A stretch of 64,000 nt of DNA, taken from Vicugna vicugna (taxonomy: Eukaryota). Shown here piece by piece: positions 47,001 through 50,000 of the stretch (positions are counted from its first letter, which is position 1; every line of letters begins with the position of its first letter). The stretch spans positions 1,541,062 to 1,605,061 of the forward strand of contig MU057809.1 of NCBI GenBank assembly GCA_013265495.1, read 5' to 3'. Made by a program: the position numbers and the translations under genes. The notes beneath the pieces are model-generated. The model was not told where the DNA came from, did no database searches, and saw only the letters and a program-made list of their open reading frames with translations.

Positions 47001-50000
47001 GTCCTGGGGCTGCTGTCCCCGAAGTTCTGAGAGATGATGGTCACTGGTAGGTTCCTGGGCAGACTCTGGCGGCAAGGAGAAGCCGCGTCATTGACGGGGA
47101 GTGAGGAGCAGCCTCTGGACGGGCAAACGGCTCTGCTGCCGGTGCTGCTGATCCCTGGGGCACCCACGCCTAAAACTCAGGACGGCCTGTTCTTCTCTCC
47201 TGACCCCTGCGTCCACCAGGACGCCAACATCGTTCTAAATTATGATCGATTCATCAGTGAAAATAAATGAACTACTACTTGGTAAGATCTTACAAACATA
47301 ACATTGACCAAAAGAAGCCAGGCTCAAGAGACCACCTACTGCAGGATCCCACTTATAAAAAACTATGAAAGAGGCAATAAAACTGACCTACATCATAACC
47401 AGGATAATGGCTACATTTGAGGTGAGGGAGTAGTAATGCGTAGGAGGCACAGGGGTTGCTTCTAGGGTTCTAGTAATGTTCTATGTCTTGATCTGGGTGG
47501 AGGTTACATTAGTGTGCTCACAATTAAAATGTATTGAGTTGTTCGTGACAACATATGCTCTTTTTAATATACATGTTATTCTCAATAAACCAGTAAAAAA
47601 AACCTTAAAGAAAAAAGAACTTATCATCCGAGCTCCAGTGTCCTCCTCACAAGCCTCCTGACCCCATCTCCCTTCCGCCAGGGGTTGGGAACAGGCCCCG
47701 TGTCCTTTGTAATAGTAAAGAGATTGCCTCCTGGCTGGACTTGGCCCCTTAACTGGTATGCCACCATCAGATCGCCAATTTCTAGCCTTGTGCCTAAGCT
47801 ACAAATATAAAAGATATTACCCGGGGATAAGGGGATAGCTCAGTGCCAGAGCGCATGCTTAGCACACACAAGGCCATGGGTTCAATCCCCAGCACCTCCA
47901 CTACGTTGTTGTTTAAAAAAACAAAACCTAAGAAACTTTACTTTGGGGTGGGGAGGGTACAGCTCAGTGCTTAGCATGCGTGAGGTCCTGGGTTCAATCC
48001 TCAGCACCTCCATTTAAAAATAAAAACCAAAACCTAATTATCTCCCTTGTCCAAAAAAAAAATATTGCTGAATGACTGAACAACCATGGAAACAGTGCCA
48101 GGTACCGTCCTGAGTGATTCACCCTGTTGTCTGAAGCTGAGGCTCAGGCCCGTTATGTAACTTCTCGATGACCCCTGCAAAGCCACATAGCACCCTCATG
48201 CCACACTCGCTCTAGGCCCAAGCTTTGGGCCTCACTCTGCCGCACAAAATCCTTCATGGTCCGAGAATAACTGACAACCAAACTCCTCAGCCTACAGGCC
48301 CACCCTGCCCCTGCTGCTGCCCCCACCAGCCACACCTCCCGCCTGTCCCTGCCCCCCCGACACACGACAGAGCTGCCTACCGTGGCCTGTTGACCGTGCA
48401 CCCAGACCCACAGCTGTGAAGGGGACACCATCTGCCTTGACGGCAGCGTCTTTCACGTCTGAGGGCCTGGGGCCTCGCCGTGACACGTTCTCTGAACCTC
48501 CTATCGCCCGGACACGGCTGTGTCCTCCTAGGCACCAGTGACTTTAACGGGAGCGGGCATCTTAAAGCCTGTGACCATCCAGGTGGGTCTCAGGAAACCC
48601 AGTGGGGGGCTGACGGCCGTCAGGGGTCAGCTGAGAGGGAGCTGAGATGGCCTAGCCAGCGGGCGGCCAAGCCAGGGACCTGCCCCGCACCTTCCAGCTT
48701 CAAATGAGCGGCTGGTACTCATCACTACCCAGACGCGCGGCCCAGGGCGGGGCGCGGCCCAGGGCGGACTGCGCAGGCGCGGCGGGGAGGCGGGGCCCCG
48801 CCCAGCCCCCCCGCCCTCCTGGTCCAGGCTGCCGCTGTCCCTGGAGAGGCGCCGCAGCTTGCTTTCCAGGTTCACGATGCAGGCCTCCCGCCGGACCATC
48901 TCAATCCTCATCTCGTCGTTCTTCTCCTCCAGCTCGCGGATCTGCTTCCTGTACTTGTCCTTCTCGATCAGGCACTGCGAGTACTGGGTCTGGGCTTCGT
49001 CCCGGGAATGGAAGGCCTGTGGGGGACGGGGAGGGAACAAGGCGGCCGCTTGGCTTGCTCGCCGGACACACCCACATCGGCTCAGGACGCGCGCTCCCCA
49101 GCCACGTGCTGGCCACGCTGTCGCGGCCCTTCTCTGACCCTGACTCTCGGGCATTTCAATCTCTGCCTTCCTCAGTAACACGTGTCACAACCCCCGTCTG
49201 TCCAGCCCTGGCTGTGGGCCGGGCTCCGTGCCAAGGGCAGAGCCCACTCTCTGCCCTGCAAAGTCGTGCTGTTAGCACTGTTCCCACTGCACAGATGAGG
49301 ACAGTGAGGCTTCCGGGGAGTAGAAGCCTGTCTGCCGTCACATGTCTGAAGAGTGACAGGGCCTGGACCTGGTCATCTTACTCTAAAGACCAGGCGTGTG
49401 AGGACCATTCTCTGTCCTATGAGCCGCTGGAGCCGAGCGCAGGCCCCCATGCTACTCAAGTGCCTGTGAATTCCAAAAGCCTTTTGGGATACGATTCATT
49501 TTTGGAAGAGAAACAGGAAAGATGGATTCATGAGTAGTCCCCGCAGAGTTAATGCCACTCCACTGGACAGAACACCCTGACGGACCCCAGTGGCTTGAGC
49601 CCACAGCCCCGTGCGCAGCAGCAGCCAGGCAGGCCTGTACCTGGTCGCGCTCCCGCTCCACCTCCTCCAGCTGCAGCATGACCGTGTTCATGCGGTGCTT
49701 GTACATCTCGCAGTCCTTCCCGAGGGTCGAGCACTTCAGCTCCAGGTCCTCCTTCTCCTCCAGGTACTGTGAGCAACAGTGGGAAATCTATACTCGCCTC
49801 ACACAGTCAGCAAGTCAGGGCTGACAGCTGTTTTCCACTTGTGTCTTTCTACTGCCTGGCCAGAGCTGGATTGTCCCTCCTTACAATGCCTGACCTTCTC
49901 AGAGTCAGCTCTCTGATCAGAAGGGACCACGGCAGTAGGCTAGTCAATCAACTGAGATTTGCTGCGGACCTACTATGTGCCAGGGTGTACAGCAGGGAAC

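Follow-up and report, generated by a model that had tools for sequence, protein, structure and literature searches.

One of the 22 coding introns of CARD11 begins with GA instead of GT in the window, by which we mean the whole 64-kb stretch of DNA analysed here, and we hold with somewhat more confidence than doubt that the GA is an error of the assembly or of its consensus and that the donor is really a canonical GT. The exon that ends at this donor, the intron that follows it and the sites near the start of that intron are laid out as follows:

48819..49016, minus strand: 198-nt CARD11 coiled-coil exon (AFHSRDE...RDSGSLDQ), phase 0 at both ends
48817..48818, minus strand: GA dinucleotide at intron positions +1/+2 (GT in relatives), the sole AG-compatible join
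47066..48818, minus strand: intron of 1753 nt, GA...AG, acceptor CCTTGCCGCCAG|AGT, placed by the junction search
46889..47065, minus strand: next coding exon (...KGIQ), canonical donor CAG|GTGCCT
49641..49766, minus strand: preceding coding exon (YLEEKEDLE...ERERDQ), donor CAG|GTACAG, phase 0
48729..48818, minus strand: open in-frame stretch of 90 nt, adding 30 aa if the downstream donor is used
48727..48728, minus strand: candidate cryptic donor TGG|GTAGTG, in frame, the first usable downstream GT
48720..48816, minus strand: intron start rich in G runs, about 85% G+C, with 12 overlapping GGG in its first 100 nt, including a G7 run

The CARD11 locus and its GA intron

The coding part of CARD11 lies complete within the window on the minus strand, from a start-codon exon near 57633 to a stop near 28860. 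Its exons join at 22 junctions into an uninterrupted product of 1147 aa, and the 3.4-kb coding sequence is free of frameshifts and stops. The product and pig CARD11 can be aligned over their whole length at 95.3% identity and without gaps; against the annotated Camelus CARD11 proteins the identity is 99.4% for C. ferus (P0177) and 99.5% for C. dromedarius (P0182), with one gap and 5-6 differing residues in both comparisons. This closeness to Camelus shows the source to be a camelid. The Camelus proteins, at least two in number, were found among the 15 listed of the 84 members of the pig CARD11 cluster, and none of those 15 is a CARD11 protein from the window's own species. This full-length collinear similarity, at a locus that is single-copy in the assembly, marks the gene as the orthologue and bears out its naming as CARD11 by an earlier, sequence-only reading of the same DNA. 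Since the locus is single-copy, it is no collapsed duplicate, and the assembly holds no second CARD11 copy, second haplotype or retrocopy in which the junction might be recorded. There are no N runs in the window, and the further 200 kb hold one of 160 N. That run, at position 2369 of L007 (G000:C861:1361001-1371000), is the sole N run in 264 kb around CARD11 and may be a scaffold gap; apart from it the assembly around CARD11 is contiguous.

At every coding intron we ran a junction search for the donor and acceptor that together come closest to restoring pig CARD11 (P0048), and it assigned GT-AG borders to 21 of the 22. A GT-AG pair is the best-scoring join at 20 coding introns and lies 8 score units below the best at one (exon end 45947). 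Elsewhere in the gene, at window positions 43074-43076 on the minus strand, there is a tandem acceptor AAG|CAG|CCC, at which the best join keeps a Gln (SKMQPHRS) that both Camelus isoform-X2 proteins are without (SKMPHRS). The difference fits the pairs of 1154- and 1153-aa isoforms on record in many species, and this is an ordinary NAGNAG alternative acceptor.

At the remaining intron, the CAG that ends the 198-nt exon is followed on the minus strand by GAGGGCGGGGGGG; bases 48818-48817 are GA, followed by GGGCGGGGGGG, and neither GT nor GC stands at +1/+2 in the assembly sequence. The only solution that ends in AG is CAG|GAGGGCGG ... CCTTGCCGCCAG|AGT, with the next exon running from 47065 and the terminal AG standing after a pyrimidine-rich tract, and no GT/GC..AG or AT..AC pair comes within 8 score units of this best join. 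Only the GA..AG intron 48818..47066 yields the conserved protein join; the longer reading past the exon end gives GAGGGCGGGGGGGCTGGGCGGGG. The last 40 nt of the exon contain no GT or GC donor, and the intron contains no GT upstream of +49. The exon itself is preceded by an ordinary acceptor, cacAG at 49018-49017, and encodes 66 residues that are 97% identical to those of pig and identical in the annotated Camelus proteins. The Camelus models are annotated with an ordinary join between this exon and the next, in proteins that do not themselves show the donor bases. RNA editing of the +2 base was considered and rejected, as A-to-I editing would yield GG and not GU.

The earlier reading had thus placed the exon end at 48819 and the GA directly after it correctly, and its claim that the GA is unique among the 22 donors stands. 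Its "exon 9" and "intron 9" have the right borders and a numbering that counts untranslated exons; the exon is the seventh coding exon in the window.

Public sequencing runs were also compared with the stretch 46800-49800 around this intron. Fourteen runs of DNA or of unstated kind, from three organisms, hold 0.82-0.91 of its sampled words, and six runs that are RNA or guessed to be RNA hold 0.22-0.36, the three exons making up 0.17 of the stretch. These unaligned word shares hint that the RNA runs include intron sequence, whether from pre-mRNA, a retained intron or DNA carry-over.

The donor position in other species

The protein collection contains open reading frames called on the genomic contigs of other animals, some of which read from the 198-nt exon into the intron, and because they run straight from the one into the other, their first intron codon reports the donor. 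The exon occurs in 172 database proteins, of which 53 were counted automatically as continuing into the intron and two more (P0158, P0161) were added by eye. Another 110 show the splice to the next exon, 93 of them by automatic count and 17 by eye (P0104 and 16 that are shifted by one residue, the exon being one residue shorter in them). Of the rest, P0147 stops at the exon end; in P0015, P0016, P0099 and P0109, all of them long annotated proteins, some other sequence follows the exon; P0162 resisted classification; and P0173 is without the exon end.

In all 55 read-through frames from other species the first intron codon is Val (GTN), and in 44 of the 53 counted automatically the first two are Val-Gly; the window alone has Glu (GAG). 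Judged by these reading frames, GT is the ancestral and universal state of the CARD11 donor among the relatives examined, and the GA, conserved in none of them, is accordingly a derived change. The simplest histories would be a substitution of T by A (GTGGGC to GAGGGC) or the loss of a T from GTAGGG, and the two are equally good. The sequence-only reading had proposed that one missing T would restore GTAGGG; this is possible and not necessary, the substitution accounting for the site just as well, since the relatives' Val-Gly is compatible with both. In other respects the window's intron is like the orthologous GT-AG introns of other vertebrates, which follow the same exon end (…LDQ or …LEQ, phase 0), lead to a next exon SLPRNLP… and also have a G-rich start, whereas +2 is T in all 55 relatives and A in the window.

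A camelid genomic reading frame over the exon and its read-through was sought in the protein collection at longer and at near lengths, and none was found; nor did the protein matches include a transcript from the same lineage. A search of the same collection with a 277-aa plus-strand frame over the same DNA gave one match, at 54% identity and not camelid genomic, and a pattern scan across the donor in metagenome contigs gave three matches, all of them unrelated chance sequence.

The read-through frames bear on a second stretch of the intron as well. At 48700-48735 on the minus strand, some 85-120 nt into the GA intron, stands GTCTGGGTAGTGATGAGTACCAGCCGCTCATTT, which appears from these frames to be conserved in several other species: the same in-frame peptide occurs in them as VWVVMSRSRSF (P0127, P0170), VCVVMNRPDRS (P0136) and VCVVTSRDS (P0145). 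The stretch contains the candidate cryptic donor, a GTGATGA resembling a snoRNA C box and a small ATGAG/CTCAT hairpin, and it may be an intronic regulatory element. An Rfam search of 46800-49800 gave only matches below threshold, none of them near the donor or 48700-48735, and the fold of 48605-48740 is no better than that of shuffles (z = -0.1), which gives no indication of a structured RNA there. The weak sub-threshold matches (sR48, tmRNA-like) lie at 47640-47950, in the low-G+C middle of the intron, and most likely belong to an interspersed repeat without function.

Donor strength and the source of the GA

Each 11-nt donor of the gene was paired with the 5′ end of U1 snRNA, and the energies are given in kcal/mol. 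The duplex at the GA site has an energy of -6.3 kcal/mol, which makes it the 21st of the gene's 22 donors and the second weakest; the other 21 lie between -5.6 and -11.6 kcal/mol, with a median of -10.1. A T at +2 would make the site similar to another donor of this gene, CAG|GTGGGGCT, whose pairing energy is -10.8 kcal/mol. Outside +2 the site conforms to the relatives' GTNGGN, and no other position has been improved for the lost U. The difference between these two energies and the absence of any compensating change both favour a consensus error, as does the universal GT at this exact position in the 55 relatives, set in a gene that is otherwise in order throughout, with its remaining introns GT-AG, its product complete and its Camelus counterparts nearly identical.

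We infer, then, that the deviation arose in the assembling rather than in the animal. The fault would be one of a single base, a T called as A or a T dropped, within the intron start that is filled with G runs, and a G+C content of 85% together with a G7 run is the kind of context in which consensus quality is usually worst. The animal itself would have an ordinary U2-type GT-AG intron and would splice CARD11 as all other mammals do. Mutated GA donors normally stall splicing, and a truly dead donor would be unlikely in a reference animal, because loss of CARD11 function causes severe immunodeficiency. In the review PMC6156466, deficiency of CARD11 and its null and dominant-negative alleles are reported to cause disease, loss of function leading to severe immunodeficiency. 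Several points run against a consensus error, however. The case for it is an argument from base rates; a miscall of T as A is atypical of homopolymer error, and the changed base stands outside any homopolymer; the local assembly is sound, as the lack of N runs in the window, the intact coding sequence and the single copy attest; and efficiently spliced GA-AG introns are known from the FGFR genes and ITPR1 (PMC4176328). We nevertheless rank assembly error first, as the earlier reading had done, on the strength of the general base rates of error and of allele and of the absence of a compensating change.

A rather unlikely alternative is that the T>A change, or a T deletion, at +2 is real and has inactivated the donor, being carried by the sequenced animal, possibly in heterozygous state, or common in its lineage. 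Four outcomes would then be open to the transcript: use of the in-frame GT at 48728, with 30 residues rich in Gly, Pro and Arg added between the coiled coil and the inhibitory linker; skipping of the 198-nt exon, with 66 aa lost in frame; use of an out-of-frame GT at 48690 or 48679; or retention of the intron. The first two had been noted in the sequence-only reading, and both are confirmed as structurally feasible. The frame stays open for 90 nt up to TGG|GTAGTG (GT at 48728-48727), giving the 30-aa insert, and skipping preserves the frame because the exon is 198 nt long and both flanking introns are in phase 0. The candidate donor at +90 pairs with U1 at -6.4 kcal/mol and is the best GT site within the intron's first 190 nt, whereas the two that come next, AAG|GTGCGG at 48690 and CAG|GTCCCT at 48679, are out of frame.

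A disabled donor is supported by an assembly that does read GA and is otherwise clean in CARD11, by a first reasonable downstream GT that lies in frame behind an open frame, by an exon that can be skipped in frame, and by an insertion point that, judging from alignment to orthologues, coincides with the boundary between coiled coil and linker. But an open stretch of 90 nt is what composition leads one to expect at about 85% G+C, and the read-through frames of relatives are open as well, many of them for 20-45 codons. The +90 donor, moreover, is weak and would leave G runs inside the exon. The 198-nt exon shows no sign of relaxed selection, since its protein is identical to that of Camelus, and a damaging allele is unlikely a priori, given that CARD11 is under strong constraint and has known disease alleles (PMC6156466).

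A further suggestion is that the intron is of U12 type, or otherwise of a special kind that accepts GA, and this we regard as vanishingly improbable. Nothing beyond the odd dinucleotide speaks for it. The U12 donor consensus is RTATCCTT; the sequence contradicts such an assignment, the donor GAGGGCGG being unlike it, and the relatives have plain GTNGGN donors of U2 type.

Known GA donors and the meaning of the site

A real GA might also be spliced at the usual place. If it were real and fixed, the intron would be a lineage-specific, stand-alone GA-AG intron of U2 type, which the splicing machinery would recognise by the exonic CAG, by the G residues at +1 and at +3 to +5, and by the dense downstream G triplets in the role of an intronic enhancer. 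G triplets are intronic enhancers, and 12 GGG stand in the first 100 nt. The GA-AG join is, besides, the only one that gives the conserved protein, and the gene is intact with it. Against this, the GA is not conserved, all 55 relatives having GT; no helper GT is at hand, either among the exon's last 40 nt or in the intron before +49; the pairing with U1 is poor, 21st of 22; and the G-triplet density is unexceptional, the gene's other introns ranging from 0 to 17. We therefore consider a working GA-AG intron here quite improbable.

GA-AG introns that splice efficiently are described in human FGFR genes and ITPR1 (Parada et al. 2014, PMC4176328; TOGA2 preprint, 10.64898/2026.06.30.735536), with validation by RT-PCR in man (PMC4176328), and this speaks in favour of a working GA donor. 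Like the CARD11 site, the sites in human FGFR1-3 and in intron 24 of ITPR1 have GA at +1/+2, an AG at the 3′ end and a U2-type context. They are conserved between species, whereas the CARD11 GA is derived, occurs in one assembly and is known here from DNA alone. The FGFR site, moreover, is reported to depend on a GT six bases upstream and also on two downstream intronic elements (PMC4176328; PMC7072748, Frey and Pucker 2020), while the CARD11 site has no GT nearby, none of the FGFR kind about 6 nt upstream being found in the last 40 nt of the exon. Having neither a helper GT nor a conserved GA, the CARD11 site lacks two features of the FGFR-type class. A stand-alone GA donor may still be able to work, since 24% of human non-canonical sites are reported to be constitutive (Parada et al. 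2014, PMC4176328).

What the site means depends on which of these readings is right. If the GA is an artefact, as we favour, it serves as a warning only: screens for lost genes or altered splice sites that use this assembly will raise a false flag for CARD11, and the site should be corrected or masked. That the GA is instead real and fixed in this camelid lineage, by way of a stand-alone GA-AG intron or of a donor moved 90 nt downstream with its 30-residue insert, we think unlikely. In that event a GT donor that is conserved everywhere else would have disappeared from an essential immune scaffold gene in the past few million years, with the protein still being made. A real GA would amount to a natural experiment in which a mammalian spliceosome faces a GA donor without a neighbouring GT, or it might bring an insertion, specific to the lineage, at the hinge governing CARD11 autoinhibition and hence lymphocyte NF-kB signalling. 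Confirmed in several animals, it would be a worthwhile example of an essential gene losing a splice donor, of interest to workers on splicing and on camelid immunology, and would leave general understanding unchanged.

Two other known systems offer a measure for the site. Disease-type mutations of T to A at +2 of a donor lead to the use of cryptic sites or to exon skipping, and they are like the CARD11 site in that a single change at +2 of an otherwise normal donor is accompanied by a cryptic GT farther into the intron and by an exon whose skipping keeps the frame, whereas the CARD11 change is known here from one assembly sequence only. The "uncertain loss" class of TOGA2 takes in single apparent inactivating mutations that stem from base errors in an assembly. 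The CARD11 site is like it in showing one isolated splice-site defect in a gene that is otherwise intact and conserved, and gene-loss pipelines treat such a pattern as "rare assembly base errors" (10.64898/2026.06.30.735536). It is in this class, by analogy, that we would provisionally file the GA site of CARD11.
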